Positions 777-14,783 of a stretch of DNA of 32,000 nt are shown here, piece after piece. Position numbers and translations under genes: made by a program. The stretch lies in the NCBI RefSeq assembly GCF_000009705.1, contig NC_003276.1, positions 300,001 through 332,000 of the forward strand. Reading direction: 5' to 3'. A model generated the notes under the pieces. The model made no database searches and was not told the origin of the DNA. It saw only the letters and a list, made by a program, of their open reading frames with translations. Source of the DNA: Nostoc sp. PCC 7120 = FACHB-418 (GTDB lineage: Bacteria; Cyanobacteriota; Cyanobacteriia; Cyanobacteriales; Nostocaceae). The first letter of the stretch is position 1. Every line of letters begins with the position of its first letter.

Positions 777-2987
777 GTGCGTGTCAAAACTCCCACTGTC
801 ATACAAATGGAAGCGGCCGAATGTGGAGCAGCTTCCCTAGCGATTATTCTTGCCTACTATGATAGCATTGTCCCCTTAGCCGAACTCCGCATTGAGTGCG
901 GAGTTTCCCGTGATGGGAGCAAAGCCTCTAATATCATTCTTGCTGCTCGACGCTATGGAATGGTTGCAGACGGCTTTAAAGCAGAACACCTAGAACAACT
1001 CCAAGACTTAACTCCCCCCTACATCGTTTTTTGGAACTTCAATCATTTTCTGGTAGTGGAAGGATTGAGCAAACATTGGGTGTTCCTCAATGACCCCGCT
1101 ACTGGTCCCCGCAGGGTTTCCTGGGAGGAATTTGACGAAAGTTTTACAGGGGTTGTCCTAGTGATGGAACCTGGTGCCGACTTTAACAAAGGCGGTCGCA
1201 AACCCAGTGTCATCTTAGGCTTGATAGACCGTTTGCGGGGTTCAATTGGTTCAATTTTATACTGCATTTTCGCCGGATTTTTCTTGGTGTTGCCCGGTTT
1301 AGCAATTCCGGTTTTCAGTCAGGTGTTTGTGGATCATGTTCTGGTGGAAAGTCGCACTGAATGGCTGCGTCCCCTAATTTTAGGGATGATTCTTACCACG
1401 GTGTTTCAAGGACTGCTGACACTACTCCGACTGCGCTATTTGAGAAAGTTGAGGATTAAGTTGGCTGTGGGAATGTCCACTCGCTTCCTGTGGCATATTC
1501 TGAGATTACCTGTGAGATTTTATGCCCAAAGGTATGCAGGAGAAGTTAGCAATCGCGCCAGTTTGAATAATAAGGTGGCTGAGGTGCTTTCCGGGCAATT
1601 GGCAACTACAGTTATTGATGTAGTTATGATCTTGTTCTACGCCCTAGTGATGTTTGCCTATGATTGGGTATTAACGTTAATTGGGATCTGTTTTACTGCG
1701 ATCAATGGGTTAGCCTTGCAATGGGTTGCTAGACATCGCGTAGATGCAAATATACGTTTGATACAGGATTGGGGAAAAGCAACTGCGGTGAGTATTGCAG
1801 CGATTCAGAGTATCGAAACGTTGAAAGCATCAGCTTTAGAGTCGGATTTCTTTTCCCGATGGTCTGGATATTATGCCAAAGCTGTTAGCGCACAGCAAGA
1901 TTTAGAAGTCACAAATCAAATATTAGGGATTTTGCCCATACTGCTGGCCTCTTTAACTTCGATGTTAATTTTAGTCGTTGGAGGTTGGCGGGTAATGGAT
2001 GGGAATCTCAGCATTGGGATGTTGGTGGCATTTCAAAGCTTGATGCTGAGTTTTCAGCAGCCTGTCAACACTTTAGTAGATTTCGGTACTACTCTCCAGG
2101 AATTAGAAGGGGATTTAAATCGCTTAGATGATGTGTTAAGCAATTCCCTTGATCCAGAGGTGGAGATGGTAAGCAGGGAAGCAGGGGAGCAGAGGGAGCA
2201 GGGGAGAGGGGGAGATGAGGAGAAATCCAAAATCGAAAATCCAAAATCGAAAATCCAAAATTTGCAAGGTTATGTGGAGTTACGAAATATCACTTTTGGT
2301 TACTCTCATATTGACCCGCCATTGATTGAGGACTTCAGTTTATCGTTGCAACCAGGACAAAGAGTAGCGTTGGTTGGTGCAAGTGGTTCGGGGAAATCAA
2401 CCTTGGCTAAATTAATCTGTGGACTTTATCAACATTGGGAAGGAGAAATTCTTTTCGACGGGATTAAAAGAAGCGAAATTCCGCGTCATGTGTTGGCGAG
2501 TTGTCTGTCGCTGGTAGAGCAGGATATCTTTTTATTTGGGGGGACGGTGCGGGATAACCTAACGTTATGGGATGCTACAGTTCCAGATGAGCAGCTTGTA
2601 CAAGCTTGTCAAGATGCAGCTATCCATGAAGCGGTAATGGCAATTCCGGGGGGATATGATGGGGAATTGTTGGAGGGAGGGGCTAATTTAAGTGGGGGAC
2701 AGCGCCAGAGGCTAGAAATTGCCCGTGCGTTGGTAAAAAATCCAGCTATTTTAGTAATGGATGAGGCGACATCTGCGTTGGATGCCCAGACAGAACAAAT
2801 TATTATGGAAAATCTGCGACGGCGCAACTGTAGTTGCATACTAGTAGCGCACCGTTTGAGTACGATTCGCGATTGTGATGAGATTATTGTTTTAGAACAG
2901 GGGAAGGTGGTGCAACGCGGGACTCACGATGAGTTATGGCAAGAAGGAGGAGTTTATGAGCGGTTAATTCGTGCTGAGGAACGATAG
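777..2987 (+). CDS. peptidase-C39-domain ABC transporter (PCAT; double-glycine peptide processing and export; NHLM-type peptidase/permease/ATPase subunit)
   Basis: 736-aa ORF. C39 motif QMEAAECGAAS (Cys codon 822-824), His in NFNHF (1044-1046), Asp in NDPA (1092-1094). Followed by a multi-TM ABC membrane domain. Walker A GASGSGKST, signature LSGGQRQR, Walker B ILVMDEATSALD, H-loop VAHRLS. The GTG start directly follows an in-frame TAA, so the start is uncertain. Confidence 0.95.
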   Translation: MRVKTPTVIQMEAAECGAASLAIILAYYDSIVPLAELRIECGVSRDGSKASNIILAARRYGMVADGFKAEHLEQLQDLTPPYIVFWNFNHFLVVEGLSKHWVFLNDPATGPRRVSWEEFDESFTGVVLVMEPGADFNKGGRKPSVILGLIDRLRGSIGSILYCIFAGFFLVLPGLAIPVFSQVFVDHVLVESRTEWLRPLILGMILTTVFQGLLTLLRLRYLRKLRIKLAVGMSTRFLWHILRLPVRFYAQRYAGEVSNRASLNNKVAEVLSGQLATTVIDVVMILFYALVMFAYDWVLTLIGICFTAINGLALQWVARHRVDANIRLIQDWGKATAVSIAAIQSIETLKASALESDFFSRWSGYYAKAVSAQQDLEVTNQILGILPILLASLTSMLILVVGGWRVMDGNLSIGMLVAFQSLMLSFQQPVNTLVDFGTTLQELEGDLNRLDDVLSNSLDPEVEMVSREAGEQREQGRGGDEEKSKIENPKSKIQNLQGYVELRNITFGYSHIDPPLIEDFSLSLQPGQRVALVGASGSGKSTLAKLICGLYQHWEGEILFDGIKRSEIPRHVLASCLSLVEQDIFLFGGTVRDNLTLWDATVPDEQLVQACQDAAIHEAVMAIPGGYDGELLEGGANLSGGQRQRLEIARALVKNPAILVMDEATSALDAQTEQIIMENLRRRNCSCILVAHRLSTIRDCDEIIVLEQGKVVQRGTHDELWQEGGVYERLIRAEER
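2173..2263 (+). repeat. in-frame low-complexity insertion in the TMD-NBD linker: purine-rich GCAGGGGA-like repeats followed by six AAAATC[C/G]-type heptamers
   Basis: 2222-2263 reads gaaatcc aaaatcg aaaatcc aaaatcg aaaatcc aaaattt (6 x 7 = 42 nt, in frame). It encodes ...EQGRGGDEEKSKIENPKSKIQNLQ between the membrane domain and the ATPase. Confidence 0.85.
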
Positions 2988-3112
2988 CCGAATTTAGACC
3001 AACGGGGTGCCAGGTATCGAAATTGCCAAAAGCCACATAAAACCAATTCGCAATTAAACTAAGCCACTCACAAGGGGTGGGGTTTTTACTACCTTGCGAT
3101 ACAAGGACTGTT

Positions 3113-3135
3113 TCGCCCACCAGGGGCGAGGTTTT
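3113..3135 (+). terminator. possible rho-independent terminator after the PCAT gene
   Basis: Stem tcgccc/gggcga (3113-3118 / 3124-3129) followed by gGTTTT. Short stem. Lies in a ~117-bp segment unique to the first repeat unit. Confidence 0.35.
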
Positions 3136-3162
3136 GAACCTTCACTTTTTGATAAATAGGTT

Positions 3163-3196
3163 AAAAGCCTATTGTTAAATCTTCTTAACAATGGGC
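3163..3196 (-). terminator. rho-independent terminator after precursor A
   Basis: 12-bp stem gcctattgttaa/ttaacaatgggc with loop atcttc. On the minus strand it is followed by TTTT (plus-strand aaaa at 3163-3166). Confidence 0.6.
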
Positions 3197-3259
3197 TGAG
3201 GTGCTTTAGTGATAAGCTGATGAGGAAAGAATACCTAACCCCGACTGCTTACTCGTTTC

Positions 3260-3391
3260 TCACTCAATCATCCAAGTAGGTCCGCCAGCTACACTATCCA
3301 GATGTTTCAAGCTGAGTGGTTGAAGTTGTGAAAGTTTCTTGTCTTGGGCTTTTTGGGCTGTGTTGGTTTTCGTCTGTTGTTTATCGGTCAT
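3260..3391 (-). CDS. double-glycine-leader precursor peptide A, 43 aa, core PTWMIE
   Basis: Hand translation: MTDKQQTKTNTAQKAQDKKLSQLQPLSLKHLDSVAGG|PTWMIE*. Leader has hydrophobics at -4, -7, -12 and -15 and GG at -2/-1. An in-frame TGA two codons upstream fixes the ATG. Below the ORF-track length cutoff. Confidence 0.8.
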   Translation of the reverse strand: MTDKQQTKTNTAQKAQDKKLSQLQPLSLKHLDSVAGGPTWMIE

Positions 3392-3442
3392 TGCTTTTCA
3401 CCCATTTTTATTTAATTGGAATAAGAGATTTTCACAATTGCA

Positions 3443-3450
3443 GCGATCGC
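3443..3450. repeat. HIP1 site GCGATCGC (example; more than 20 in the window)
   Basis: Exact octamer. Other copies include 6036-6043 and 9040-9047, and others near 9676, 10053, 10177, 10588, 11686, 11726, 12194, 15655, 16378, 16852, 17850, 19793, 27958, 28672, 28954 and 31456. Confidence 0.95.
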
Positions 3451-3469
3451 TCTGACTGTTCAGGGAACT

Positions 3470-3555
3470 CTCGTCACCCGCCATCCACGAGATTTTGAGC
3501 AAGCCCCTAAGTCCAGTATTTCATCAATTCTTAACAGATTGAGTCTGCCTTGAGC
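3470..3555 (-). pseudogene. probable decayed F-type precursor gene (unit A)
   Basis: By-eye alignment to the 3' two-thirds of gene F. Flanked by the homologous promoter and downstream spacer. Start codon and first ~20 codons are absent. Confidence 0.35.
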
Positions 3556-3568
3556 AAAGGTTACAGCG

Positions 3569-3577
3569 ATTCTATCA
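3569..3577 (-). promoter_or_regulatory. candidate extended -10 promoter (TGaTAGAAT) of unit A
   Basis: Plus-strand attctatca is TGATAGAAT on the minus strand. Conserved in four units and homologous to the F promoter. Confidence 0.4.
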
Positions 3578-3676
3578 GGGAGCAGGTCAAACTTGTCAGT
3601 TCAGGTGTACTATTTGTCTATGATCGCCTTAGATGACTCAGAACTTACGAAGCTCAAAGGTATTGTTCCACGATTC

Positions 3677-3739
3677 CACGATGAGTTATGGCAAGGAGGA
3701 GGAGTTTATGAGCGTTTAATTCGTGCTGAGAAACGATAG
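3677..3739 (+). pseudogene. duplicated 3'-end fragment of the PCAT gene (copy 1)
   Basis: Same length as 2925-2987 with a few substitutions. Reads HDELWQGGGVYERLIRAEKR* versus the genuine HDELWQEGGVYERLIRAEER*. No upstream ORF. Confidence 0.9.
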
Positions 3740-3800
3740 CCGAATTTAGACCAACAGGGTGCCAGGTATCGAAATTGCCAAAAGCCACATAAATTAAGTT

Positions 3801-3834
3801 AAAAGCCCATTGTTAAATCTTCTTAACAATGGGC
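3801..3834 (-). terminator. rho-independent terminator after precursor B
   Basis: Perfect 12-bp stem gcccattgttaa/ttaacaatgggc (3805-3816 / 3823-3834), 6-nt loop, minus-strand TTTT tail. Confidence 0.6.
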
Positions 3835-3900
3835 TGAGGTGCTTTAGTGATAAGCTGATGATGAAAAAATACCCAACCCCGACTTCTTGTTTCTACAAGA

Positions 3901-4035
3901 TCAGATCGCCCAAACAACAACCCGTCCGCCAGCTACACTATCCAGATGTTTCAAGCTGAGTGGTTGAAGCTGTGAAAGTTTCTTGTCTTGGGCTTTTTGG
4001 GTTGTCTTGGTTTTCGGCTGTTGTTGGTTGGTCAT
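3901..4035 (-). CDS. double-glycine-leader precursor peptide B, 44 aa, core RVVVWAI
   Basis: MTNQQQPKTKTTQKAQDKKLSQLQPLSLKHLDSVAGG|RVVVWAI*. Lies inside track ORF 3901..4110. Start placed at the ATG conserved in all copies. Confidence 0.8.
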   Translation of the reverse strand: MTNQQQPKTKTTQKAQDKKLSQLQPLSLKHLDSVAGGRVVVWAI

Positions 4036-4113
4036 TGCTTCTACCTTACTTTTATTGAATTGGAATAAGAGATTTTCACAATTGCGATGATCGCTGTTGC
4101 TGTTAAGCAAATT

Positions 4114-4199
4114 CTAGTCATCCGCCATCCACGAGATTTTGAGCAAGCCCCTAAGTCCAGTATTTCATAAATTTGTAACCAATTGAGTCTGCCTTGAGC
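4114..4199 (-). pseudogene. probable decayed F-type precursor gene (unit B)
   Basis: Ends ...tggatggcggatgacTAGaatttgcttaacagcaa, matching the F end ...tatacggatgacTAGaatttgcttaacagcaa. The upstream part gctcaaggcagac resembles gcccaagacaag of F. No start codon. Confidence 0.45.
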
Positions 4200-4212
4200 A
4201 AAGGTTACAGCG

Positions 4213-4221
4213 ATTCTATCA
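4213..4221 (-). promoter_or_regulatory. candidate extended -10 promoter (TGaTAGAAT) of unit B
   Basis: Same 9-mer and same context (ctgacaagtttgacctgctccc upstream on the minus strand). Confidence 0.4.
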
Positions 4222-4312
4222 GGGAGCAGGTCAAACTTGTCAGTTCAGGTGTACTATTTGTCTGAGATCGCCTTAGACGACTCAGAACTTACGAAGCTCA
4301 AAGGCACTGTTC

Positions 4313-4372
4313 CCCGATGAATTATGGCGAGGAGGAGTTTATGAGCGGTTAATTCGTGCTGAGGAACGATAG
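4313..4372 (+). pseudogene. duplicated 3'-end fragment of the PCAT gene (copy 2)
   Basis: Reads PDELWRGGVYERLIRAEER*. Has a 3-nt deletion relative to 2925-2987. Followed by the same ccgaatttagaccaacagggtgccaggtatcgaaattgccaaaagccaca tail. Confidence 0.9.
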
Positions 4373-4433
4373 CCGAATTTAGACCAACAGGGTGCCAGGT
4401 ATCGAAATTGCCAAAAGCCACATAAATTAAGTT

Positions 4434-4467
4434 AAAAGCCTATTGTTACATCTTCTTAACAATGGGC
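4434..4467 (-). terminator. rho-independent terminator after precursor C
   Basis: Same hairpin, with small variations, at 4438-4467 plus the T tail on the minus strand. Confidence 0.55.
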
Positions 4468-4532
4468 TGAAGTGCTTTAGTGATAAGCTGATAGGAAAGA
4501 ATACCCAACCCCAACTTCTCATTTCTACAAGA

Positions 4533-4667
4533 TCAGATCGCCCAAACAACCAGCATTCCGCCAGCTACACTATCCAGATGTTTCAAGCTGAGTGGTTGAA
4601 GCTGTGAAAGTTTCTTGTCTTGGGCTTTTTGGTCTGTGTTGGTTTTCGTCTGTTGTTTATCGGTCAT
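4533..4667 (-). CDS. double-glycine-leader precursor peptide C, 44 aa, core MLVVWAI
   Basis: Hand translation, codon by codon: MTDKQQTKTNTDQKAQDKKLSQLQPLSLKHLDSVAGG|MLVVWAI*. Not in the ORF track. Confidence 0.8.
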   Translation of the reverse strand: MTDKQQTKTNTDQKAQDKKLSQLQPLSLKHLDSVAGGMLVVWAI

Positions 4668-4767
4668 TTCTTCTACCTCACTTTGATTTAATTGAAATTA
4701 ACAAATGTTTACAATTGCGGCGATACCTTCGGTAAGCTTCGCTAACGCTCTTACTGTTCAGGGAACT

Positions 4768-4853
4768 CTCGTCACCCGCCATCCAAGAGATTTTGAGCAA
4801 GCCCCTAAGTCCAGTATTTCATAAATTCGTAACCAATTGAGTCTGTCTTGAGC
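4768..4853 (-). pseudogene. probable decayed F-type precursor gene (unit C)
   Basis: Same as unit A. Confidence 0.35.
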
Positions 4854-4866
4854 AAGGGTTACAGCG

Positions 4867-4875
4867 ATTCTATCA
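4867..4875 (-). promoter_or_regulatory. candidate extended -10 promoter (TGaTAGAAT) of unit C
   Basis: Same 9-mer. Confidence 0.4.
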
Positions 4876-4966
4876 GGGAGCAAGTCAAACTTGTCAGTTC
4901 ATGTGTAATATTTATCTGTGATCGCCTTAGACGACTCAGAACTTACGAAGCTCAAAGGTATTGTTC

Positions 4967-5029
4967 CACGATGAGTTATGGCAAGAAGGAGGAGTTTATG
5001 AGCGTTTAATTCGTGCTGAGGAACGATAG
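4967..5029 (+). pseudogene. duplicated 3'-end fragment of the PCAT gene (copy 3)
   Basis: Reads HDELWQEGGVYERLIRAEER*, identical at protein level to the genuine C-terminus. Confidence 0.9.
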
Positions 5030-5090
5030 CCGAATTTAGACCAACAGGGTGCCAGGTATCGAAATTGCCAAAAGCCACATGAATTAAGTT

Positions 5091-5124
5091 AAAAGCCCAT
5101 TGTTAGACCTTCTTAACAATGGGC
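5091..5124 (-). terminator. rho-independent terminator after precursor D
   Basis: Same hairpin at 5095-5124 plus the T tail on the minus strand. Confidence 0.55.
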
Positions 5125-5189
5125 TGAGGTGCTTTAGTGATAAGCTGATAGGAAAGAATACCCAACCCCAACTTCTCATTTCTACAAGA

Positions 5190-5324
5190 TCAGATCGCCC
5201 AAACAACAACCTGTCCGCCAGCTACACCATCCAGATGTTTCAAGCTGAGTGGTTGAAGTGGTGAAAGTTTCTTGTCTTGGGCTTTTTGAGTTGTGTTGGT
5301 TTTCGTCTGTTGTTTATCGGTCAT
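5190..5324 (-). CDS. double-glycine-leader precursor peptide D, 44 aa, core QVVVWAI
   Basis: MTDKQQTKTNTTQKAQDKKLSPLQPLSLKHLDGVAGG|QVVVWAI*. Lies inside track ORF 5190..5372. Confidence 0.8.
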   Translation of the reverse strand: MTDKQQTKTNTTQKAQDKKLSPLQPLSLKHLDGVAGGQVVVWAI

Positions 5325-5427
5325 TTCTTCTACCTTACTTTTATTTAATTGGAATAAGAGATTTTCATTCACAATTGCGGCGATACCTTCGGTAAGCTTC
5401 GCTAACGCTCTTACTGTTCAGGGAACT

Positions 5428-5513
5428 CTCGTCACCCGCCATCCAAGAGATTTTGAGCAAGCCCCTAAGTCCAGTATTTCATCAATTCTTAACAGGTTGA
5501 GTCTGCCTTGAGC
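5428..5513 (-). pseudogene. probable decayed F-type precursor gene (unit D)
   Basis: Same as unit A. Confidence 0.35.
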
Positions 5514-5526
5514 AAAGGTTACAGTG

Positions 5527-5535
5527 ATTCTATCA
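5527..5535 (-). promoter_or_regulatory. candidate extended -10 promoter (TGaTAGAAT) of unit D
   Basis: Same 9-mer. Confidence 0.4.
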
Positions 5536-5626
5536 GGGAGCAGGTCAAACTTGTCAGTTCAGGTGTAATATTTATCTGCAATCGCCTTAGACGACTCAGA
5601 ACTTACGAAGCTCAAAGGCACTGTCC

Positions 5627-5689
5627 CCCGATGAATTATGGCGAGAAGGAGGAGTTTATGAGCGGTTAATTCGTGCTGAGGAACGATAG
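5627..5689 (+). pseudogene. duplicated 3'-end fragment of the PCAT gene (copy 4)
   Basis: Reads PDELWREGGVYERLIRAEER* and has the same downstream tail. Confidence 0.9.
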
Positions 5690-5749
5690 CCGAATTTAGA
5701 CCAACAGGGTGCCAGGTATCGAAATTGCCAAAAGCCACAAAAATAGGTT

Positions 5750-5783
5750 AAAAGCCCATTGTTAAATCTTCTTAACAATGGGC
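5750..5783 (-). terminator. rho-independent terminator after precursors F and E
   Basis: Perfect copy of the hairpin at 5754-5783 plus the T tail on the minus strand. Confidence 0.6.
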
Positions 5784-5849
5784 TGAGGTACTTTAGTGAT
5801 AAGCTTATGAAGAAAGAATACCCGGCCCCGACTTCTCGTTTCTACAAGA

Positions 5850-5984
5850 TCAGACCGCCCAAACAAGCTGCTGTCCGCCAGCTACACTATCCAGATGTTT
5901 CAAGCTGAGTGGTTGAAGCTGTGAAAGTTTCTTGTCTTGGGCTTTTTGGGCTGTCTTGGTTTTTGTCTGTTGTTTATTGGTCAT
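5850..5984 (-). CDS. double-glycine-leader precursor peptide E, 44 aa, core QQLVWAV
   Basis: Hand translation: MTNKQQTKTKTAQKAQDKKLSQLQPLSLKHLDSVAGG|QQLVWAV*. Not in the ORF track. Confidence 0.8.
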   Translation of the reverse strand: MTNKQQTKTKTAQKAQDKKLSQLQPLSLKHLDSVAGGQQLVWAV

Positions 5985-6062
5985 TGCTTTTCACCCACTT
6001 TTATTTAATTGGAATAAGAGATTTTCACAATTGCGGCGATCGCTCTTGCTGTTAAGCAAATT

Positions 6063-6197
6063 CTAGTCATCCGTATAAGCTACCCAACCTGCGGCTACAC
6101 CCTCTAACTGTTTCAAGCTTACTGGTTGAAGCTGTGAAAGTTTCTTGTCTTGGGCTTTTTGGGCTGTCTTGGTTTTCGGCTGTTGTTGGTTGGTCAT
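6063..6197 (-). CDS. divergent precursor peptide F, 44 aa, AG cleavage variant, core WVAYTDD
   Basis: Hand translation: MTNQQQPKTKTAQKAQDKKLSQLQPVSLKQLEGVAAG|WVAYTDD*. GAGG lies 8 nt upstream of the ATG. Sits only 78 nt upstream of gene E with no hairpin between them, so the two are probably co-transcribed. Confidence 0.75.
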   Translation of the reverse strand: MTNQQQPKTKTAQKAQDKKLSQLQPVSLKQLEGVAAGWVAYTDD

Positions 6198-6234
6198 TGC
6201 TTTGACCTCACTTTTATTTAAAAGGGTTAAAGCG

Positions 6235-6261
6235 ATATTATCACGCTAGGAACTTGTGCAA
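6235..6261 (-). promoter_or_regulatory. candidate promoter of precursors F and E (TTGCAC, 15-nt spacer, TGaTAATAT)
   Basis: On the minus strand: -35-like TTGCAC (6256-6261), extended -10 TG (6242-6243) and TAATAT (6235-6240). Lies about 40 nt upstream of the F ATG in the divergent region shared with the second ABC gene. Confidence 0.45.
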
Positions 6262-6307
6262 GTGATATCCTCGTTGTTAATGACAGAAAACAAGCCCATC
6301 TGGTCAA

Positions 6308-8449
6308 ATGACAGAAAAAGCCCTACGGGAACTAGCCTCTGTCCTCAATCCCGCCGCTAATCTTCCCCAAGGAGAAACACCCTTACTAGTTGCTGTGGGT
6401 GCTGTAGGAAAAGCATTGGGGATAACTATTCGCCCACCTGCAAAAACTGAAATTCTTCTTAGCGGACTCCCGGAAACCCTCTTAGGAATTGCCCGTGCTT
6501 CTGGTTTCCGCATCCGTCGAGTTACCCTCATACCCAACTGGTGGAAAACAGATTGCGGTTCTCTAGTAGCTTTTACTCAAGCAGAAAATCGCCCTGTTGC
6601 TCTACTCAGGGTAAAAGCTAACAAGTATGAGATACTTGACTCTGTAGATTTGACGTACACTCCTGTCAACCGCCAAACTGCTGCACAACTCGCACCCATC
6701 GCCTATACTTTTTATCGCCCCTTACCAGACAAAGAAATTACATTCTTAGATATGCTGCAATTTACCCTTAGAGGGAGTACAGCAGATTTGCTGAAAATCC
6801 TCTGGGTGGGAGTATTTGCAACTTTGTTCGGGATGTTTACCCCGCAAATAACAGGCATTCTCATCGACTATGCCATTCCCGATGCGAACCGCCAATTATT
6901 AATTGAGATGGGTTTAGGGTTGTTAGCCGCTAGCTTTGGGGTGACAATCTTTCAACTGACTCAAGCTTTTGCCATTTTGCGAGTACAAACCCAAGTCAGT
7001 TACGATACTCAAGCTGCGGTTTGGGATCGACTCCTCAAACTTAAACCCGCCTTTTTTCGCTCCTATTCCACAGGGGATCTCTATAATCGCGTCTCCGCTA
7101 TGACTCAGATTCGCAACCGATTGAGCGGTAGCATTCTGCGAACCTTATTCACGAGTATATTCTCATTGTTAAATTTGGGATTGCTATTAATCTATAGTTT
7201 TCCTCTGGCATTAGTAGCAATGGCGATCGCTTTGGTAATAGTTCTGATTACTACTATTATTAGTCTGCTTACCCGCCGAAAATTACGTCCCCTCCAGCAG
7301 CTTTCGGGAGACATTCTGGGACTAACAGTGCAGTTAATCGGTGGAGTCTCTAAACTGCGAGTTGCTGCTGCTGAATCAGAGGCGTTTGCTTACTGGGCAA
7401 AAAAATACACTCAGCAGGTAAAACTGATGTTAAGTACCCAATTCATTGAAGATGTGCTGACCACCTTTAATGTTATGCTGCCAGCAGTCAGTTCAATTGC
7501 GCTGTTTGGATTGTCTGTTTCCTTGCTGGGAAAGGCTGAGGGAGGAACGGGATTATCTACGGGGACATTTCTCGCCTTTAATACTGCCTTTGGTACTTTT
7601 ATCGCCAGTGCCACAAGATTAAGCAACACCCTCATAGATATTTTAGAAATCACGATTTTATGGGAACGCACCCAACCCATTTTAAAAACAAAACCAGAAG
7701 TTGATGCTGATAAATTCCATCCTGGCAAGCTTTCTGGTGAAATTAAATTAAACCAAGTTAGCTTTCGCTACCGCCAAGATAGTCCTTTAGTTTTAGAGAA
7801 TATCGCGCTAGAAGCCAAAGCCGGGGAATTTATTGCGATTGTCGGAGCATCGGGAAGTGGAAAATCCACTGTTCTAAGGTTATTACTGGGATTTGAAACC
7901 CCAGAGGCAGGAACAATCTCCTATGATGGCAGAGATTTGTCGGGATTAGATATTGCAGCCGTGCGGCGACAATTGGGAGTAGTGCTGCAAAATGGGCGAA
8001 TTATGAGTGGTTCGATTTGGGAGAATATTGCTGGGGGCGCAATTGTTACCCAAGATGAAGCTTGGTCAGCATTGCAGATGGCTGGATTAGCGGAGGATGT
8101 GGAAGCAATGCCTATGGGGATACATACTATTATTTCCGAAGGAGGGGGCAACGTTTCAGGAGGACAGCGCCAGAGGTTATTTATCGCCCGTGCGTTGGTA
8201 CATAAACCGCAGATTTTACTGTTTGATGAGGCGACATCGGCGTTAGATAATCGCACCCAGGCGATCGTGACTCAAAGTTTAGCACAATTGGGAGTCACTC
8301 GCGTAGTGATTGCCCATCGTTTAAGTACAATTCGTCATGCAGACATGATTTATGTGCTGCAAGCAGGGAAGATAGTCCAGCAGGGAAGTTTTGAGGAATT
8401 AGCAGCCGTTGAGGGGTTATTTGCTAATTTGATGGCGCGACAGAGATAG
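6308..8449 (+). CDS. ABC transporter permease/ATPase without an active peptidase motif (NHLM-type second ABC subunit)
   Basis: 713-aa ORF. The ~150-aa N-terminal domain lacks the Q..ECG peptidase motif. Followed by a TM domain, Walker A GASGSGKST, signature VSGGQRQR, Walker B LLFDEATSALD and H-loop IAHRLS. Confidence 0.93.
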   Translation: MTEKALRELASVLNPAANLPQGETPLLVAVGAVGKALGITIRPPAKTEILLSGLPETLLGIARASGFRIRRVTLIPNWWKTDCGSLVAFTQAENRPVALLRVKANKYEILDSVDLTYTPVNRQTAAQLAPIAYTFYRPLPDKEITFLDMLQFTLRGSTADLLKILWVGVFATLFGMFTPQITGILIDYAIPDANRQLLIEMGLGLLAASFGVTIFQLTQAFAILRVQTQVSYDTQAAVWDRLLKLKPAFFRSYSTGDLYNRVSAMTQIRNRLSGSILRTLFTSIFSLLNLGLLLIYSFPLALVAMAIALVIVLITTIISLLTRRKLRPLQQLSGDILGLTVQLIGGVSKLRVAAAESEAFAYWAKKYTQQVKLMLSTQFIEDVLTTFNVMLPAVSSIALFGLSVSLLGKAEGGTGLSTGTFLAFNTAFGTFIASATRLSNTLIDILEITILWERTQPILKTKPEVDADKFHPGKLSGEIKLNQVSFRYRQDSPLVLENIALEAKAGEFIAIVGASGSGKSTVLRLLLGFETPEAGTISYDGRDLSGLDIAAVRRQLGVVLQNGRIMSGSIWENIAGGAIVTQDEAWSALQMAGLAEDVEAMPMGIHTIISEGGGNVSGGQRQRLFIARALVHKPQILLFDEATSALDNRTQAIVTQSLAQLGVTRVVIAHRLSTIRHADMIYVLQAGKIVQQGSFEELAAVEGLFANLMARQR

Positions 8450-8543
8450 TGGCGTGGCCAAGCTAAAAGAGTGTGAAAATATAGTTATTGTGGTGTGGGA
8501 ACTCCTATAGAAGGGCTAGAGAGCTTATCCTCCAAGAGAATTT

Positions 8544-8687
8544 TCATCCAAGACCACTACCCCCAGATCCTGTTCTACCACCGATTACATTTTTCAAGTC
8601 TTCCAGTGAGAGTTGCGAGAGAGGCAGAACGTCAATTATTGATGATTTGCTTGTCTTAGAATGAGGTTGATAATTGGCTTTTTTCAT
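8544..8687 (-). CDS. double-glycine-leader precursor peptide G, 47 aa, core RTGSGGSGLG
   Basis: MKKANYQPHSKTSKSSIIDVLPLSQLSLEDLKNVIGG|RTGSGGSGLG*. Has the textbook LSxxDLxxVxGG motif. GGAGA lies 10 nt upstream of this ATG. It is the internal Met of track ORF 8544..8756. Confidence 0.7.
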   Translation of the reverse strand: MKKANYQPHSKTSKSSIIDVLPLSQLSLEDLKNVIGGRTGSGGSGLG

Positions 8688-8735
8688 ATCAAAGATATCT
8701 CCGATTTTAGAAATGAGAGTATAAATTTTTGGTAT

Positions 8736-8763
8736 TTTATACTGACTTAATGTCAAGTTTCAA
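8736..8763 (-). promoter_or_regulatory. candidate sigma70-type promoter of precursor G (TTGAAA, 16-nt spacer, TATAAA)
   Basis: Minus-strand TTGAAA (8758-8763) and TATAAA (8736-8741) with a 16-nt spacer. Lies about 50 nt upstream of the ATG at 8687. Confidence 0.35.
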
Positions 8764-8788
8764 GATTTTTACATCTAAAATTACATGA

Positions 8789-10237
8789 ATGTCTGACAAA
8801 AAACGCAGTATCTTTCGTCAACAAGCACTTGATCGCCTATCTTCTCCAGAACGTTTGGATCATTTGATGCAAGTTGTTAACCACAAAGATTGGTTATCTT
8901 TGGGCGGATTGGCTATTTTTGGGGTTTTAGGTGTACTCTGGAGCGTGTTTGGTAATATTCCCATCACAGTCACAGGAAAGGGAGTGTTAATTAATCCCCG
9001 GCGGGTGGTGCAGTTTCAGTCTCCGATATCGGGACAGGTGCGATCGCTAAATGTTAAAGATGGACAATGTGTAGCCAAGGATGATATTCTCGCCACCATC
9101 GATCCCTCTCAACAAAAACAGCAATTACAGCAACAACGGGATAAACTAGCTCAATTACAACGACAAGTCCAAAAAACTACTTTACTGCGACAACAACAAA
9201 CCCAGTTAGAAACAGAAGCGATTGCTGCTGAAAGAACAAGTTTAAAACAACGGTTGCAAAATACTCAAAAATTAGCTCCTCGCCTGCAAGATGAAGGATT
9301 AAATAGCATTGACCAACAGCGTCTTAGTCTTCAAGAACGTCTCAAAGATGTAGAAGAATTAACGCCTGTACTCCAAAAAAGAGTTGAAAAACAACGGGAA
9401 TTGCAAAAGCAAGGAGCAATTTCCGAAGAACAAGTTTTACAAGCAGAACAAGAATATCGCCAAACCCGTCAGAATATCTCAAAGATTAAAGCACAGTTAC
9501 AGCAATTACGAGTCCAAGAAACAGAACAACAGCAAAAATATTTGGAAAATAAAAATAATATTACCCAAATTAACGCTGAGTTAGAAAAATTAAATACCCG
9601 TAGCAAACAACTAGAACAGAATAATCTAGCAGCTGATAATACTGAAAACAATCAAATTCAGGAATTGCAGCAAGCGATCGCTCGCTGGGAAAAAGAAGTT
9701 GCAGACAACAGTACCATTAAAAGTTCTCACGCTGGATGTATTGTAGAAATAACCGCTACTCTAGGGCAATATCTCAGTCCAGGCAACCGTCTAGGAACTT
9801 TGCAAATATCTGGACAAGCCAGCGAAATGATGAGCGTTGCTTATTTTAGGGTACAAGATGGCAAGCAAATTAAACCAGGAATGCCGATTTTAATTACACC
9901 AGATACGGTCAAGCGGGCAAGATTTGGGGGGATTGTCGGGAAAATTACTAATATTTCAGCCTTTCCTGTCACCTCGGAAGGTGCAAGTTCTGTAGTAGGA
10001 AACCCAGAATTAGTCCAAAAAGTGATGGATGGGGAAGGAGGGAAAATAGAGGCGATCGCGCAATTAAAACTTGACCCTAAGAACTTTAGCGGTTATGAGT
10101 GGTCATCTTCTGATGGGCCAAAGTTGGCAATTTCTCCAGGAACAACTACCACTGTCAGAGTAACAGTAGAAGAGCGATCGCCCATCACTTTTGTTTTGCC
10201 AATTTTAAGGGAGTGGAGTCGGCTAGAAAATCTTTGA
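8789..10237 (+). CDS. HlyD-family membrane fusion / secretion adaptor protein (NHLM-type)
   Basis: 482-aa ORF. N-terminal FRQQALDRLSSPERLD, a single TM helix (WLSLGGLAIFGVLGVLWSVFG), barrel/lipoyl segments around a ~200-aa Q/E/K-rich coiled coil. Confidence 0.9.
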   Translation: MSDKKRSIFRQQALDRLSSPERLDHLMQVVNHKDWLSLGGLAIFGVLGVLWSVFGNIPITVTGKGVLINPRRVVQFQSPISGQVRSLNVKDGQCVAKDDILATIDPSQQKQQLQQQRDKLAQLQRQVQKTTLLRQQQTQLETEAIAAERTSLKQRLQNTQKLAPRLQDEGLNSIDQQRLSLQERLKDVEELTPVLQKRVEKQRELQKQGAISEEQVLQAEQEYRQTRQNISKIKAQLQQLRVQETEQQQKYLENKNNITQINAELEKLNTRSKQLEQNNLAADNTENNQIQELQQAIARWEKEVADNSTIKSSHAGCIVEITATLGQYLSPGNRLGTLQISGQASEMMSVAYFRVQDGKQIKPGMPILITPDTVKRARFGGIVGKITNISAFPVTSEGASSVVGNPELVQKVMDGEGGKIEAIAQLKLDPKNFSGYEWSSSDGPKLAISPGTTTTVRVTVEERSPITFVLPILREWSRLENL

Positions 10238-10361
10238 TGTGGCAAGGAACTAAGAACTCGCATCGAATGTGTTGTCGTAGTTGATGTGAACAGTTTACTA
10301 ACCTAAAAACCAAAAGCATTTTTCCCTTTGAAGCTTTATCCATCTGATTAGAGCAAGATTA

Positions 10362-11207
10362 TTGGAGTTGATTTGCTATCGAATCTGGACGAAAACCACT
10401 GAATTAAAACAAGTGGAATATGAATACACCACCTTCCAGGCGCAAAAAATCAGTTCTGCCCAATCTAGGGATAATACATCACCAGATAACTTTGCCCAGA
10501 AGGATATCTCCAAAGAAGAAAATCCAGCTACAGCAACTATTACAGTTAATGCTGTTGAGATACCTGAATTAACCGAGCAGGAGCAGAGCGATCGCCTGTT
10601 TTTAAAACGTAAGGTCGAAAGGGCGTTTTTTGAAGCGGGGAAGGCACTCATGGAACTGCGCGATCGCAGATTGTACCGTTCGACCCATGCAACATTTGAG
10701 GAGTATTGTAAGGACAGGTTTGGATACAACCGTTCTCGTTCCTACCAGCTAATTGATGCCGCTATCGTTGTGGACAATCTGCAAAAATGTCCACAATTTG
10801 TGGACATTTTACCAACAGCCGAAGGTCAAGTACGCCCTTTAACAAAGCTTGAACCGCAAGAACAGCAAGAGGCTTGGCCAACTGCTGTGGAAGAAACTGG
10901 TGGTAAAGTGCCAACTGGCCGCATCGTTAAAGATGTGGTGCAGCGAATTATGGAGCGCACCCAAGTACCTAATAGTTATCAGATTGGCGAAGTGTGCCAA
11001 ATCTTAGCTAAAGATAACCCCGAACTCAGAGGCAAAGGCGGGTGTTGGTGCATAGTGGTTGCTGTCCATGACTTCAGTTGTACCGTTAGAATTTGGGACG
11101 GAGAACTGACGGCTGGGCTGAAGCATCTCAAGTCCTTCGATTACTTGCCTGTGGAATGTCAGCAGATGCAGGAGATTTGCGATGGCGTTCCGCAAGAGCG
11201 TAGCTGA
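10362..11207 (+). CDS. hypothetical protein with a ParB/KorB-like helix-turn-helix segment
   Basis: 281-aa ORF with a TTG start and no in-frame ATG before residue ~95. Contains the motif LMELRDRRLYRSTHATFEEYCKDRFGYNRSRSYQLIDAAIVVDNL, typical of ParB-like DNA-binding proteins. Both start and 3' end are uncertain. Confidence 0.5.
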   Translation: MELICYRIWTKTTELKQVEYEYTTFQAQKISSAQSRDNTSPDNFAQKDISKEENPATATITVNAVEIPELTEQEQSDRLFLKRKVERAFFEAGKALMELRDRRLYRSTHATFEEYCKDRFGYNRSRSYQLIDAAIVVDNLQKCPQFVDILPTAEGQVRPLTKLEPQEQQEAWPTAVEETGGKVPTGRIVKDVVQRIMERTQVPNSYQIGEVCQILAKDNPELRGKGGCWCIVVAVHDFSCTVRIWDGELTAGLKHLKSFDYLPVECQQMQEICDGVPQERS

Positions 11208-12207: not shown

Positions 12208-12983
12208 TTTTAAAGATTTATTTTCGTTTCATTTAAAGAGATGCTTATTTGTTCATACCTTTGGTAGCTCGTGGCTACTTGGTTTTTGATGTGTAAGTGA
12301 TTACCCTTAATTATTTAATACCCCTTACTCTCAGCATTTTTTGATGAACCTATCCCACCCTGAAAAAGCTCATTAAGAAGATGAATAATACTTATATCCT
12401 CCGTAACAATCTAGTTGTAGAGTCTCCCTTAATTATTGACCTAACTATGTTAGGGGTTTTAGAACAATCTCTGGTTCTGCTGCAAGAACGACTGCGAGCT
12501 TTTGCTGATGACTCAGATTTTGCTCAAAAGATGGCAGTAGCTTTTGGGGAAGGGGTTGCGGTTGAGTCTTTACGAACAACGTGGTTGGCAGGGGATTTTA
12601 GTATTATTCCTCAAATAGCGATTCGCAATGCAGCAGATATTAATGGTGCGAATGGAGTTTATGGGGTATTTACTAACCGGATTTATCTATCTTGGGAATT
12701 TTTGCAAGCGAATCAGGGGAATCCAGAAAATTTAGTAGAGTTGTTGCTAGAGGAAATTGGGCATCGAGTTGATAGTGTTTTGAACAATAGCGATAGTGCT
12801 GGGGATGAAGGGGCAATTTTCTCTGCATTAGTGCAAGGAAAAAGTTTTGGTAATGAAGCTTTGGCACGCTTAAAGGCGGAGGATGATTCAGCAGTTATTA
12901 CTATTTATGGGCAGGTTATCGCAGTTGAACAGCAGAATTTCACTGGTACTAATGGAAATAACACAATAATCGGAACCTCTGGC

Positions 12984-13183
12984 GACGACACAATTAACGC
13001 AGGATTAGGAAGCGATAGTGTAGATGGTGGTGCAGGGAATGAACTGTTAATCGTCGATTATTCTAGTAACACTTATACTGGTACAAGTTCCGGCATATCA
13101 AGTTCGGTATCCAGCAATGGCGCAGGGGGATTTAACGGTTATTATCAAGCCTACAATGGCTCTAGTTACGATACAGTTAATTT
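12984..13183 (+). repeat. direct repeat R1, left part (paralog of 15332-15533)
   Basis: Differs from 15332-15533 by 4 substitutions plus a 2-nt indel. Confidence 0.9.
13176..13183. repeat. target-site duplication, left copy (gttaattt, possibly 9 bp including c)
   Basis: The same 8-mer directly flanks the other IS end at 14861-14868. The uninterrupted paralog at 15526-15540 reads gttaatttctctaac. Confidence 0.85.
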
Positions 13184-13208
13184 CTAGCGTGGCAAAACTT
13201 ACTAGAGA
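13184..13208. repeat. IS terminal inverted repeat (left in window)
   Basis: ctagcgtggcaaaacttactagaga is the exact reverse complement of 14836-14860. Confidence 0.9.
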
Positions 13209-13999
13209 AGACGACTCTCTAGATTAGCCAAGTAAGCCTTGGGGTCTCTGCGAAATCGATACTGTTCAATTCTGGCTTTGTGGTGTTTTTGCAATTGAGA
13301 GCGTAATTCGAGCCAAGTATGAATATCAACTTGTGCTAAATCAGATGCGGTAAAAGAATGAAGCTTAGTAGCTATCGCACAGGCAAGTTTGACAGAACCA
13401 CGAATAACGAGAGATGAGGGGGCAACCTTACGACCGGTACAACGACGTTGATGATAACGTAGCATACCAAAAGCGTGTTCTAAGTCATTATTAGTTCTAG
13501 GAAAATCTTCAATTTCATAACAATGAAAAAGTCCAGACCAGTAGCTGTGGGTGGTTTTTATAAAGTTATCGATTGCAGTGTTCAGGGTACCAGCTTTCTG
13601 CTTTTGTTGAGACATTTCTGTCAACAGTTGCTGATAACTTTGTTTGACCCCAGCAGCATCAAGACCTATTTTATTGTTGAGAATATTACTAGCTTTATCA
13701 ACCCACTGATATGCAACCCTCACAGGTGAAAATAAAGATGCAGTAGCAGATAATCCCTTAGCTAGAAGGTGTTTTAGGTTAACTAAAGGTGGTGGTAAAG
13801 CACTTCTTTTTTCCATCCTTTCTAAGCTTTGTTCTATCAAAGTCAAATTTTCTTGTAACTTTAATCCAGATGCCTCTAACGGTGGATGTCCATCATTGGT
13901 TATAGAACTACGGACTGCCGAGCAATAATCTTCAATAATAGTCACCAAATCCTTATCTTCATTGGTAACACTACGTTCAATTTCTCGTAATCCTCTAAC
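13202..13999 (-). CDS. transposase, C-terminal part (other frame, open back to the A10 run)
   Basis: The frame of track ORF 13202..13948 stays open upstream and reads KKKVRGLREIERSVTNEDKDLVTIIEDY... from the A run. Its stop lies inside the left IR. Confidence 0.7.
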   Translation of the reverse strand, partial: VRGLREIERSVTNEDKDLVTIIEDYCSAVRSSITNDGHPPLEASGLKLQENLTLIEQSLERMEKRSALPPPLVNLKHLLAKGLSATASLFSPVRVAYQWVDKASNILNNKIGLDAAGVKQSYQQLLTEMSQQKQKAGTLNTAIDNFIKTTHSYWSGLFHCYEIEDFPRTNNDLEHAFGMLRYHQRRCTGRKVAPSSLVIRGSVKLACAIATKLHSFTASDLAQVDIHTWLELRSQLQKHHKARIEQYRFRRDPKAYLANLESRLL

Positions 14000-14783
14000 T
14001 TTTTTTTTTCAATTCCTTTTTTGCATTTCTATCCGCCTCATATATGGGTTTAATTGCTTCTTTCAGGTAATGGTAATGACATAAACCATGAGCAATTTTA
14101 GGTAATGCTAACCCAACAGCTTTACGAATTGATTGTTGTCCATCACTAACAACTCCATCAATTGGTACATCCAGTGTATTAGCCACTTCTAATAATAACG
14201 CTACTAAATCTTCATTCCTTGATGATAATAAAGTTTTAGCAAGTAAAATTTCTCCTGATAGACAATCTCGAATTACCCATAATACCTCATGTCCAATTTC
14301 TGGCTGCATCCCATCAATGGCTAATATCACCCGTCCTTGATTAGCCACTATTGCTTTTAATCTTTTATGGTCTTTTAGCCATAAAGAAAGTAACTCGTCA
14401 TATCTGTCAATTAAGTGTGTGACCGTTCGTTTACTTATACATATACCTTTTAATTCAAGGTGAGTATGTATTTGAGGAACACTTCTATGTTCCTGGTAGC
14501 GTAATGCTCCTATATAAGCAATCACATCCAAACCAAATTCGTTCTGTGGTAGAGCGAGTGACCCTTCTTGCTCTGGTCGATATGCTTTTTTATACCGCAT
14601 ACATGACTTATTTTGACATCGCCGAATTTTTAGCTGTAGTTCTACTACCCCATTTAGCGTTCTTATATGTCGAGGATTATTGTATTCATTCCACATTGCT
14701 TGACCACACGAAGGGCATTTTTTTTGAACACAATCGAGTACTTCAAACGATGTTGCTTCTGGTTTTAAACTTTTTCTTACCAA
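13995..14783 (-). CDS. transposase, N-terminal part (zinc-finger and first half of the DDE domain)
   Basis: 262 aa with a TTG start. Contains CPSCG...C..KSC zinc-finger-like pairs, then LAIDGMQPE and VVSDGQQS Asp motifs. Ends in KKKS* inside an A10 run. Confidence 0.75.
   Translation of the reverse strand: MVRKSLKPEATSFEVLDCVQKKCPSCGQAMWNEYNNPRHIRTLNGVVELQLKIRRCQNKSCMRYKKAYRPEQEGSLALPQNEFGLDVIAYIGALRYQEHRSVPQIHTHLELKGICISKRTVTHLIDRYDELLSLWLKDHKRLKAIVANQGRVILAIDGMQPEIGHEVLWVIRDCLSGEILLAKTLLSSRNEDLVALLLEVANTLDVPIDGVVSDGQQSIRKAVGLALPKIAHGLCHYHYLKEAIKPIYEADRNAKKELKKKS

Follow-up and report, generated by a model that had tools for sequence, protein, structure and literature searches.

Short-core double-glycine peptide genes embedded in an NHLM-type export cassette of Nostoc sp. 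PCC 7120

A stretch of 32,000 nucleotides from Nostoc sp. PCC 7120 (= FACHB-418; RefSeq assembly GCF_000009705.1, contig NC_003276.1, positions 300,001 to 332,000 of the forward strand; hereafter the window) harbours an NHLM-type (NHLP-type) tripartite export cassette, i.e. a peptidase-containing ABC transporter (PCAT; ABC1), a second ABC transporter (ABC2) and a HlyD-type adaptor, interleaved with seven small genes on the opposite strand (p1 to p7), whose predicted products carry a double-glycine (GG) leader and a core of only 6–10 residues. On balance, we consider it probable that these precursors are cleaved after GG or, in one case, AG and exported by the cassette as a diversified set of short, probably unmodified peptides. 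This reading builds on the family membership of the exporter, the catalytic residues of its protease, the gene anatomy, signatures of selection and the lack of a linked maturase. The features are collected in Table 1; loci from other genomes carry L numbers, and positions given without one refer to the window.

All three cassette genes are clustered inside positions 777–10237 on the + strand and are assigned to the NHLM type by curated cut-offs: ABC1 matches TIGR03796 with 1202.1 bits (cut-off 853.3) over its full length (residues 4–732), ABC2 matches TIGR03797 with 1024.8 bits (cut-off 709.4) and the adaptor matches TIGR03794 with 338.1 bits (cut-off 156.2). An initial annotation, made from the sequence alone, had named these three families and proposed a profile search, which thus bears it out. 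LahT150 (6mpz) aligns without gaps to residues 2–133 of ABC1 (E 1.9e-43), and an offset of 11 puts Q10, C16, H90 and D106 of ABC1 on Gln21, Cys27, His101 and Asp117 of LahT, i.e. on the catalytic Cys, His and Asp and the oxyanion Gln. The C39 domain of ABC1 has the complete catalytic residue set that the initial annotation had read as an intact Q/C/H/D motif, and it is a predicted LahT-like protease. Catalytic and ATPase motifs are complete, and the exporter genes are intact. ABC2, which had been described as lacking the C39 motif, indeed gave no Peptidase_C39 match. Its N-terminal 165 aa were considered as a degenerate C39-like domain and rejected, as BLASTP found no similarity and a profile–profile comparison by hhalign, with alignments built from related loci, returned a probability of 0.3 %; a single-sequence AlphaFold model of this domain reached a predicted local distance difference test score (pLDDT) of 35.

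The seven precursors are 43–47 aa long and consist of 37-aa leaders and 6–10-aa cores, and hydrophobic residues at -4, -7, -12 and -15 as well as GG (AG in p6) at -2/-1 were read in all seven translations. Coordinates and translations agree with the initial annotation, which had listed seven minus-strand precursors with leaders of this length and canonical GG (once AG) ends. It had also called them antisense to the exporter genes: they do lie on the opposite strand, in two gaps between the exporter genes, and none overlaps exporter coding sequence, so that only the strand part of this description stands. The leaders of p1 to p6 share a mean column identity of 84 % and end in L(-15)QPL(-12)SLKHL(-7)DSV(-4)A(-3)GG, while the leader of p7 belongs to a different family with the same hydrophobic spacing. 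In the window, the six paralogues were the only matches to a hidden Markov model (HMM) of the leader (E 1e-20 to 1e-24). TIGR01847, a 15-residue GG-leader model, scored 13.6 bits with p7 (cut-off 15.7) and did not match p1 to p6. The NHLP (TIGR03793) and Nif11 (TIGR03798) models gave no match with p1, p2, p6 or p7 at E up to 10, in line with the initial annotation, which had set these precursors apart from both families.

Cleavage by LahT150 is impaired by mutating Val-4, Leu-7 or Leu-12, and the usual residue at -3 is Ala (PMC6363468). The p1–p6 leader holds all three required residues together with Ala-3, and these positions also match the ComAB/BlpAB rules. Since LahT150 can still cut a synthetic peptide whose leader part has 13 residues and whose core has 4 (PMC6363468), a core of 6–7 residues should be no obstacle to the protease step. 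Six of the seven window cores contain Trp, each within W-x-x, and the p7 core does not; Cys is absent from all seven. The [M+H]+ values computed for the unmodified peptides are 776.365 (PTWMIE), 842.525 (RVVVWAI), 831.480 (MLVVWAI), 814.482 (QVVVWAI), 843.472 (QQLVWAV), 869.368 (WVAYTDD) and 848.422 (RTGSGGSGLG).

With around 20 sequence clusters in databases of billions of proteins, the leader family is small: 11 clusters came from 5.8 billion proteins in a word-indexed search, and eight from 1.84 billion representatives in an exhaustive profile search. Together with the loci L005, L006/L007, L010, L027 and L076, these clusters yielded 20 further distinct cores, i.e. RNSIWVI, PTLYGDM, PHIYNE, PPAINGDGM, PMGSPEL, PYVMNDL/A, PHINTNF, PG[VLM][VI][ST]GA[DE]M, FANPFA, VLLFANPFA, FANPFNG and GLIWLE among others, of which 15 have 6–9 residues. 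The initial annotation had proposed a leader search of this kind for recurrent short cores, and they do recur; its statement that every core contains Trp fails in the window and still more outside it, where Trp occurs in 3 of the 20 further cores. Cys occurs in none of these, the cores as a whole share no residue, and several (PGVVSGADM, PGMITGAEM, PMGSPEL, PPAINGDGM) lack any aromatic residue. An Anabaena sp. FACHB-709 plasmid encodes a protein identical to p5, where it carries the annotation hypothetical (P0002), and p6 corresponds to an annotated protein (P0004). A back-translated scan of the window's six leaders against 185,579 species-representative genomes found no relative, and in these genomes the family surfaced only through a scan anchored on ABC2 (L027 and L010). 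No plasmid in PLSDB closely matched the array or the ABC2–HlyD region.

Several lines of evidence make p1 to p6 look like real genes. Among them are the short-core relatives, about 20 of which come from other assemblies, the SD-like GAGG motifs ahead of start codons and the hairpins behind five of the genes (Table 1). Leader dN/dS was 0.09–0.51 in every informative comparison among p1 to p6 and relatives from three other loci, and that of p6 against p1 to p5 was 0.18–0.32. Array similarity alone says little, because the units are recent copies. In units 2–5, variable columns account for 6 of 9 in core codons 1–3 vs 44 of 297 in the non-coding flanks (Fisher p = 0.0008), and the last 22 leader codons vary at 3 of 66 columns, fewer than the flanks (p = 0.025). 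Selection on the cores themselves is suggested because core types recur in independent sources (PTWMIE, PG[VLM][VI][ST]GA[DE]M, FANPF and PYVMND[LA]); PTWMIE is found unchanged in the metagenome protein P0009 on a leader that differs at seven positions. In L006 and in Nostoc sp. PCC 7524 (core RTGCGGTGIA), homologues of p7 are likewise placed between ABC2 and HlyD, and the p7 core is comparatively conserved. A PatS/HetN/PatX-like identity of p7 was considered and rejected, as RGSGR or RG[ST]GR, which we take to be the motif of these heterocyst inhibitors, is absent from RTGSGGSGLG and from the PCC 7524 core.

The search for maturases covered around 10 kb upstream and 22 kb downstream of the cassette as well as related loci. 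No radical SAM, LanM/LANC-like, YcaO or prenyltransferase gene was found among window open reading frames (ORFs) of at least 100 aa, nor in the 9 kb further upstream of the window that contigs with an identical ABC1 provide (L001/L002 1–9623), and there is no polyprenyl synthase or kinase in the window or this upstream flank. A Pfam scan of 30 neighbouring proteins at 12 of the closest loci revealed no radical SAM, LanM, YcaO or ABBA/ComQ-type enzyme, and the called genes in L006/L007 and PCC 7524 likewise include no maturase. The earlier remark that no maturase is in sight thus holds well beyond the window, at 14 other cyanobacterial loci overall. The window and the 9 kb preceding it contain no histidine kinase, response regulator or RRNPP-type receptor; their only regulator is a 108-aa XRE-type HTH protein.

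Cleavage, export, lack of modification and function of the peptides can be pictured as follows. ABC1 with its LahT-like C39 protease, its partner ABC2 and HlyD would form a pump across both membranes, with an outer-membrane channel presumably encoded elsewhere. The precursors would be recognised via the last ~15 leader residues (L-15, L-12, L-7, V-4, A-3 and GG or AG), the C39 domain would cut after the double glycine, and linear peptides of 6–10 residues would be pumped out. The six-gene array expanded by tandem duplication of a ~650-bp unit that dragged the ABC1 3' end along, with variation focused on the first three core residues, which yields a small library (xxVVWAI-type, PTWMIE and WVAYTDD). 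Outside, the peptides would act between cells, in competition or interference or in signalling. They are most likely released unmodified, because no maturase is linked in the window or at the related loci, and the cores have no Cys and no residue in common. As several near-identical variants are encoded together, with no receptor gene linked, a set of diversified effectors appears more plausible to us than a single quorum signal.

Several points weigh against this reading. The adjacent 126-, 281- and 269-aa ORFs have no Pfam, NCBIfam, PHROG or PDB-sequence match; as hidden maturases they were rejected, since they are not conserved beside related cassettes, with the one exception of a homologue of the 281-aa protein in L036. 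Pro at P1' of the predicted cleavage site is unusual for a cysteine protease and present in many family cores, 11 of which begin with Pro directly after GG (many end in an acidic residue or in an acidic residue plus Met or Leu). An N-terminal Pro after cleavage would leave an end resistant to many aminopeptidases. For p7, dN is about equal to dS in the comparison with PCC 7524 (0.12 vs 0.13), and evidence that it is a gene is weaker than for p1 to p6. A maturase may also be unlinked, as precursors of RiPPs (ribosomally made, post-translationally modified peptides) can lie far away from theirs, e.g. those of the prochlorosins (PMC2887384). The N-terminal half of the 37-aa leader is conserved in the p1–p6 family beyond what the C39 protease needs, and could be a docking site for such an enzyme; it can also be explained by transporter selectivity, by analogy with the pneumococcal PCAT RtgAB, which picks its own GG peptides via leader residues -22 to -18 (PMC7018657).

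The distant-maturase explanation, in which an unlinked enzyme modifies the peptides and the cassette only cleaves and exports them (candidates are a radical SAM cyclophane synthase similar to XyeB, acting on aromatic-x-x motifs, and a prenyltransferase for Trp of the kind known from ComX and kawaguchipeptin), is possible, if rather doubtful. Besides the conserved leader half and the prochlorosin precedent, it draws on the W-x-x position of Trp in six window cores, where WAI, WMI and WAV fit an aromatic-x-x cyclophane pattern, and on matches of p1, p2 and p6 to the TIGR04495 XyeA model (E 0.0022–0.038), which at 14.1–18.1 bits stay well below the cut-off of 33. In Gram-negatives, a GG leader likewise occurs together with very short, aromatic-rich cores, HlyD and a protease-transporter in the XYE systems (bioRxiv 10.1101/2024.12.16.628070), but there the radical SAM enzyme is encoded in the cluster, whereas here none occurs over the searched flanks or beside L006, L027, L010 and PCC 7524, and the scarcity of Trp outside the window, the cores lacking aromatics and the absence of Cys or any shared residue also count against this explanation.

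Export of unmodified pheromones by the PCAT and their sensing by a receptor encoded elsewhere, comparable to ComC/BlpC or to the short Gram-positive pheromones, is unlikely. The short hydrophobic cores would suit such a role, as would the combination of a conserved leader with a polymorphic core, reminiscent of pherotype variation; streptococcal PCATs do export GG-leader pheromones (PMC6363468, PMC7018657), and p7, with its comparatively conserved core and a conserved promoter, looks as an induction peptide might. Nevertheless, no sensor or receptor gene of the types sought is linked, an array with four near-identical variants looks more like a product library than like one signal with one receptor, and peptide quorum sensing is not known to have been shown experimentally in this group. 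That the small ORFs are decaying remnants, e.g. stop-truncated bacteriocin precursors carried along in repeats, is highly improbable. The units are recent duplicates, whose conservation alone proves little, mobile-element debris lies nearby (ABC1-tail fragments and the transposase remnants at 13202–14783), NCBI annotation names only two of the seven precursors, and p7 shows no excess of synonymous change; however, short cores are a family trait across genera rather than a local truncation, the leader dN/dS values and the recurrent core types indicate selection, and the exporter genes are intact.

Regardless of these alternatives, export of a diversified, probably unmodified peptide set remains our preferred reading, and we further considered a speculative form of it, to which we give little credence: a PCAT-dependent, polymorphic communication or kin-discrimination system, in filamentous cyanobacteria, in which unmodified hydrophobic peptides of 6–7 residues, diversified in their first three positions, differ between strains and leave through the ABC1/ABC2/HlyD pump, the receptor is encoded elsewhere and the conserved p7 peptide acts as inducer. 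If true, cyanobacteria would have their first demonstrated pheromone (‘pherotype’) system based on ribosomal peptides; to our knowledge, such pheromones have been proposed in Gram-negatives since the early 2000s and never demonstrated. If released unmodified, the peptides would be among the shortest PCAT cargos known, and as they are cheap by routine synthesis, a cell–cell interaction by cyanobacterial ribosomal peptides becomes directly testable in tractable Nostoc/Anabaena. If they are modified by an unlinked enzyme, they would point to a cyanobacterial class of short-core RiPPs that has so far gone undiscovered. In both cases, a role of the NHLM cassette that is uncoupled from lanthipeptide or azole chemistry would come to light.

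Table 1. Positions of the exporter genes, precursor genes and associated repeats and signals in the window
Feature	Position	Strand	Description
ABC1	777-2987	+	Peptidase-containing ABC transporter: C39 protease, permease and ATPase; TIGR03796
ABC2	6308-8449	+	Second ABC permease/ATPase without protease domain; TIGR03797
HlyD-type periplasmic adaptor	8789-10237	+	TIGR03794
p1	3260-3391	-	37-aa GG leader and core PTWMIE; leader HMM E 9.5e-24
p2	3901-4035	-	Leader and core RVVVWAI; Shine–Dalgarno (SD)-like GAGG motif 9-12 nt before ATG
p3	4533-4667	-	Leader and core MLVVWAI; SD-like GAGG; leader HMM match
p4	5190-5324	-	Leader and core QVVVWAI; SD-like GAGG; leader HMM match
p5	5850-5984	-	Leader and core QQLVWAV; leader HMM match
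p6	6063-6197	-	Leader ending AAG (AG replaces GG) and core WVAYTDD; start 110 bp from ABC2 start, divergent
p7	8544-8687	-	Second leader family MKKANYQ...LSQLSLEDLKNVIGG and core RTGSGGSGLG
Tandem array	2925-6062		Five ~633-752-bp units holding p1-p5; repeat families D1-D5
ABC1-tail copies	3677-3793, 4310-4426, 4967-5083, 5627-5743		Repeat family D4; still encode ...HDELWQGGGVYERLIRAEKR
13-bp-stem hairpins 3' of p1-p5	3167-3196, 3805-3834, 4438-4467, 5095-5124, 5754-5783	-	Terminator-like by consensus scan
Terminator-like hairpin and T-run after ABC1 stop	3064-3090	+	Consensus scan; putative function
p7/HlyD divergent intergenic region	8688-8788		101 bp; promoter-like TTGAAA, 18 nt, TAAAAT on minus strand

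The array units are 89–93 % identical, and each consists, in minus-strand order, of an upstream region, the precursor gene, a hairpin with a 13-bp stem and a copy of the last ~117 nt of ABC1. Because the units copy the ABC1 tail, the array must have grown by duplication of a segment starting inside the ABC1 3' end. The 13-bp-stem hairpin has five matches vs 0 expected by chance, and array hairpins fold at -25 and -30 kcal/mol (z = -2.2 and -2.9). Precursor transcripts reading past these hairpins would be antisense to ABC1-tail sequence. Two kinds of ORF were treated as by-products of the repeats: those on the + strand (MVEVVKVSCLGLF...) that run antisense to the leaders, and those on the minus strand that run antisense to the copies of the ABC1 tail. 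The flanks of p6 are unlike those of the other units; since p6 lies 78 bp upstream of p5 and has no hairpin of its own, both probably form one transcription unit.

For both ABC2 and HlyD, the nearest precursor gene is divergent and only ~100 bp away, so that each is likely to be transcribed separately and divergently from the precursors. The initial annotation had expected read-through from the exporter genes to produce antisense RNA against the precursors; this divergent layout and the terminator-like hairpin after ABC1, where the RNA of 3040–3100 folds at -14.9 kcal/mol (z = -2.1), lend this no support. The p7/HlyD intergenic region has exactly the same length in the window, in L006 (3420–3520) and in PCC 7524 (L073 9900–10000). 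Its CTTGAAAC...GTCAGTATAAAAT motif is kept in all three and partly in Calothrix L027, which makes the region a candidate for a promoter or operator shared by both genes. No match came from scans for Rfam families and tRNAs.

The order beyond the cassette is the 281-aa ORF, the 269-aa ORF, a 268-aa RTX-repeat protein, transposase remnants and a 5297-aa giant protein, and none of the window's neighbour ORFs is conserved beside loci with this leader family. The 281-aa ORF (10362–11207) starts just downstream of HlyD, and its homologue at L036 12605–13319, in a Nostoc metagenome-assembled genome (MAG), directly follows ABC2. Its family comprises more than 2000 clusters across Nostocales, with several members per genome and often on plasmids; because it is thus around 100-fold wider than the leader family, the 281-aa protein is no dedicated partner, and by its distribution it is best described as a common Nostocales plasmid or mobile gene. 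Further downstream, the 268-aa RTX-repeat protein (12381–13187) and the giant (15700–31593), which combines Calx-beta, LamG, CARDB, a subtilase S8 domain and 21 RTX repeat matches, were noted as classical type I secretion substrates, for which the adjacent peptide exporter is not an expected carrier. Between them, two adjacent minus-strand ORFs of 248 and 262 aa (13202–14783) show weak partial matches to IS66/MULE/Mutator transposases and are probably a broken insertion sequence. The upstream flank encodes, on one strand, an RRXRR/HNH nuclease, an MT-A70 methyltransferase, a 2OG-Fe(II) oxygenase fragment, a DUF1392 protein, the XRE-type HTH protein and small ORFs of unknown function, and looks like a mobile-element or plasmid backbone.

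Similar cassettes are found in other cyanobacteria, as the ABC2-anchored scan of species-representative genomes returned 65 loci. In the closest clade (73–84 % ABC2 identity), and likewise in L006 and PCC 7524, the spaces between exporter genes again contain GG-leader genes, most of them in opposite orientation, and their cores range from 6 to ~40 residues, e.g. RVRRLR in L013, four peptides of 14–26 residues in L029 and five of 10–23 residues in PCC 7524. The trio with embedded GG genes and no recognised maturase occurs in L006, L027, L029, L011, L013, L010 and Nostoc sp. PCC 7524. The PCC 7524 locus (L073; chromosome CP003552.1, 4156999–4177142) is syntenic, with 84–89 % amino acid identity to the trio of the window, and its cargo consists of the p7 homologue and four other opposite-strand GG peptides (cores of 10–23 aa); a 318-aa Terpene_syn_C_2 protein is encoded among the precursor genes and a two-gene pair (55 and 108 aa) between p7 and ABC2. 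In the clades with 58–66 % identity, the one locus inspected (L032, ~61 %) has a longer ABC2 (879 aa) and, by eye, a protein of the two-CAP_ED type known from group V and a CHASE2 cyclase-like protein as neighbours.

The Pfam-scanned neighbours of related cassettes are housekeeping and mobile-element genes, with exceptions in L008, L027/L010 and PCC 7524. In L008 (5597–7111), from a cyanobacterium not in culture, ABC1 and ABC2 are separated by genes for a GG peptide, encoded on their own strand and with two Cys in its 33-aa core, and for a MauE/DoxX-thioredoxin-like membrane protein, which suggests disulfide handling for a two-Cys cargo; a similar two-Cys peptide is found at L027 9383–9628. 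A third GG-type leader family (‘LTITELDxxAGA’ followed by ‘GI.TSP...’) lies directly upstream of a ~360-aa TPR_12/TPR_10 protein in L027 (7357–8891) and L010 (105–1562), with two leader–core repeats inside a single ORF in L027, and the TPR proteins of these two loci, from Calothrix rhizosoleniae and a Xenococcaceae MAG, respectively, are 81 % identical. Leader and TPR gene may form a peptide/TPR partner module within the exporter cassette. As a conserved partner the TPR protein was rejected, since its gene is absent from the window, and so were the terpene-synthase-like genes, as the PCC 7524 protein and the Terpene_syn_C_2 match at L010 6219–6890 are unrelated to each other. Judged from these loci, the module that travels together is the trio with variable GG cargo only, which therefore agrees with the ‘mix-and-match’ of cargo and transporter described when the cassette was defined (PMC2887384).

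A metagenome contig scan added one locus (L076), in which two members of the p1–p6 leader family (9983–10345) carry the cores GLIWLE and RLVRPQEGVYAIDETGDPGDP. No transporter occurs in the 10 kb upstream, and leader-family precursors are therefore not always located beside an exporter. The two leaders adjoin a 1837-aa protein, by eye a Ser/Thr kinase with ATPase and repeat regions.

Among known systems, the NHLP/Nif11 cassettes, including those of the prochlorosins (PMC2887384), resemble the window in the three exporter families, paralogous precursors, a conserved GG leader, a hypervariable core and a cyanobacterial host. In contrast, their precursors have leaders of ~70–90 aa and cores of ~26 aa on average, whereas those of the window have 37-aa leaders, cores of 6–10 aa and no NHLP/Nif11 domain. 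The window also lacks a linked LanM or cyclodehydratase; a lanthipeptide or prochlorosin assignment finds no LanM, and no Cys in the seven window cores and the 20 further cores. Prochlorosin precursor genes are scattered in the genome, far from their maturase (PMC2887384). LahT and its LahA peptides (Bobeica et al. 2019, PMC6363468; 6mpz) share with the window the C39 domain, the catalytic residues and one transporter for many diverse cores. LahA peptides, however, are Nif11-type lanthipeptide precursors with cores of more than 20 aa and a lanthionine synthetase, none of which is found in the window, and the Gram-positive LahT host has neither HlyD nor a second ABC protein, while the window has both.

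Closer in organisation are the cyanobacterial GG ‘bacteriocin’ clusters of groups III–V (Wang, Fewer and Sivonen 2011, PMC3140520), which share the short-type C39 ABC transporter, the protease-less ABC transporter, HlyD and small unannotated GG precursors nearby, and some of which are plasmid-borne. There, the extra ABC transporter occurs with LanM in group IV and with CAP_ED proteins in group V, whereas the window has neither; the group V layout is seen in the 61 % identity clade (L032). Ultra-short cores as a family trait are not described in that survey (PMC3140520). The XYE triceptide/xenorceptide systems (bioRxiv 10.1101/2024.12.16.628070) are similar in their Gram-negative host, GG leader, very short aromatic cores, HlyD and PCAT. 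They differ in having the radical SAM enzyme XyeB in the cluster and the aspartic protease XyeC, neither of which is linked in the window, which in turn has two ABC proteins, and the repeated aromatic-x-x motifs of XYE cores are absent from most cores of the window family.

In ComC/ComAB, BlpC/BlpAB and the rtg system (PMC7018657), unmodified GG peptides are cut and exported by a PCAT, with several cargo genes per locus; N-terminal leader motifs contribute to transporter selectivity in rtg, and the rtg locus has been linked to competitive fitness (PMC7018657). These streptococcal loci differ from the window in their linked two-component or Rgg regulation and in lacking an outer membrane, HlyD and a second ABC subunit. 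Their mature GG-leader pheromones are considerably longer than 6–10 aa. Bacillus ComX, in turn, yields C-terminal Trp peptides of 5–10 residues that are highly polymorphic between strains, and depends on linked ComQ (an isoprenyl transferase) and ComP (a sensor kinase), without a GG leader or PCAT. Here, no ComQ/ComP-type gene is linked, and Trp is absent from 17 of the 20 further cores.

A leader family with cores of 6–9 residues, embedded in the cassette and without a maturase, is not described in the 2010/2011 cyanobacterial surveys or in the LahT and HetC papers, and a full-text search for the core and leader strings returned no paper. Exporter and GG-leader cargo are each of a known kind, and what appears new is their combination, i.e. 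a short-core leader family inside a cassette without a maturase.

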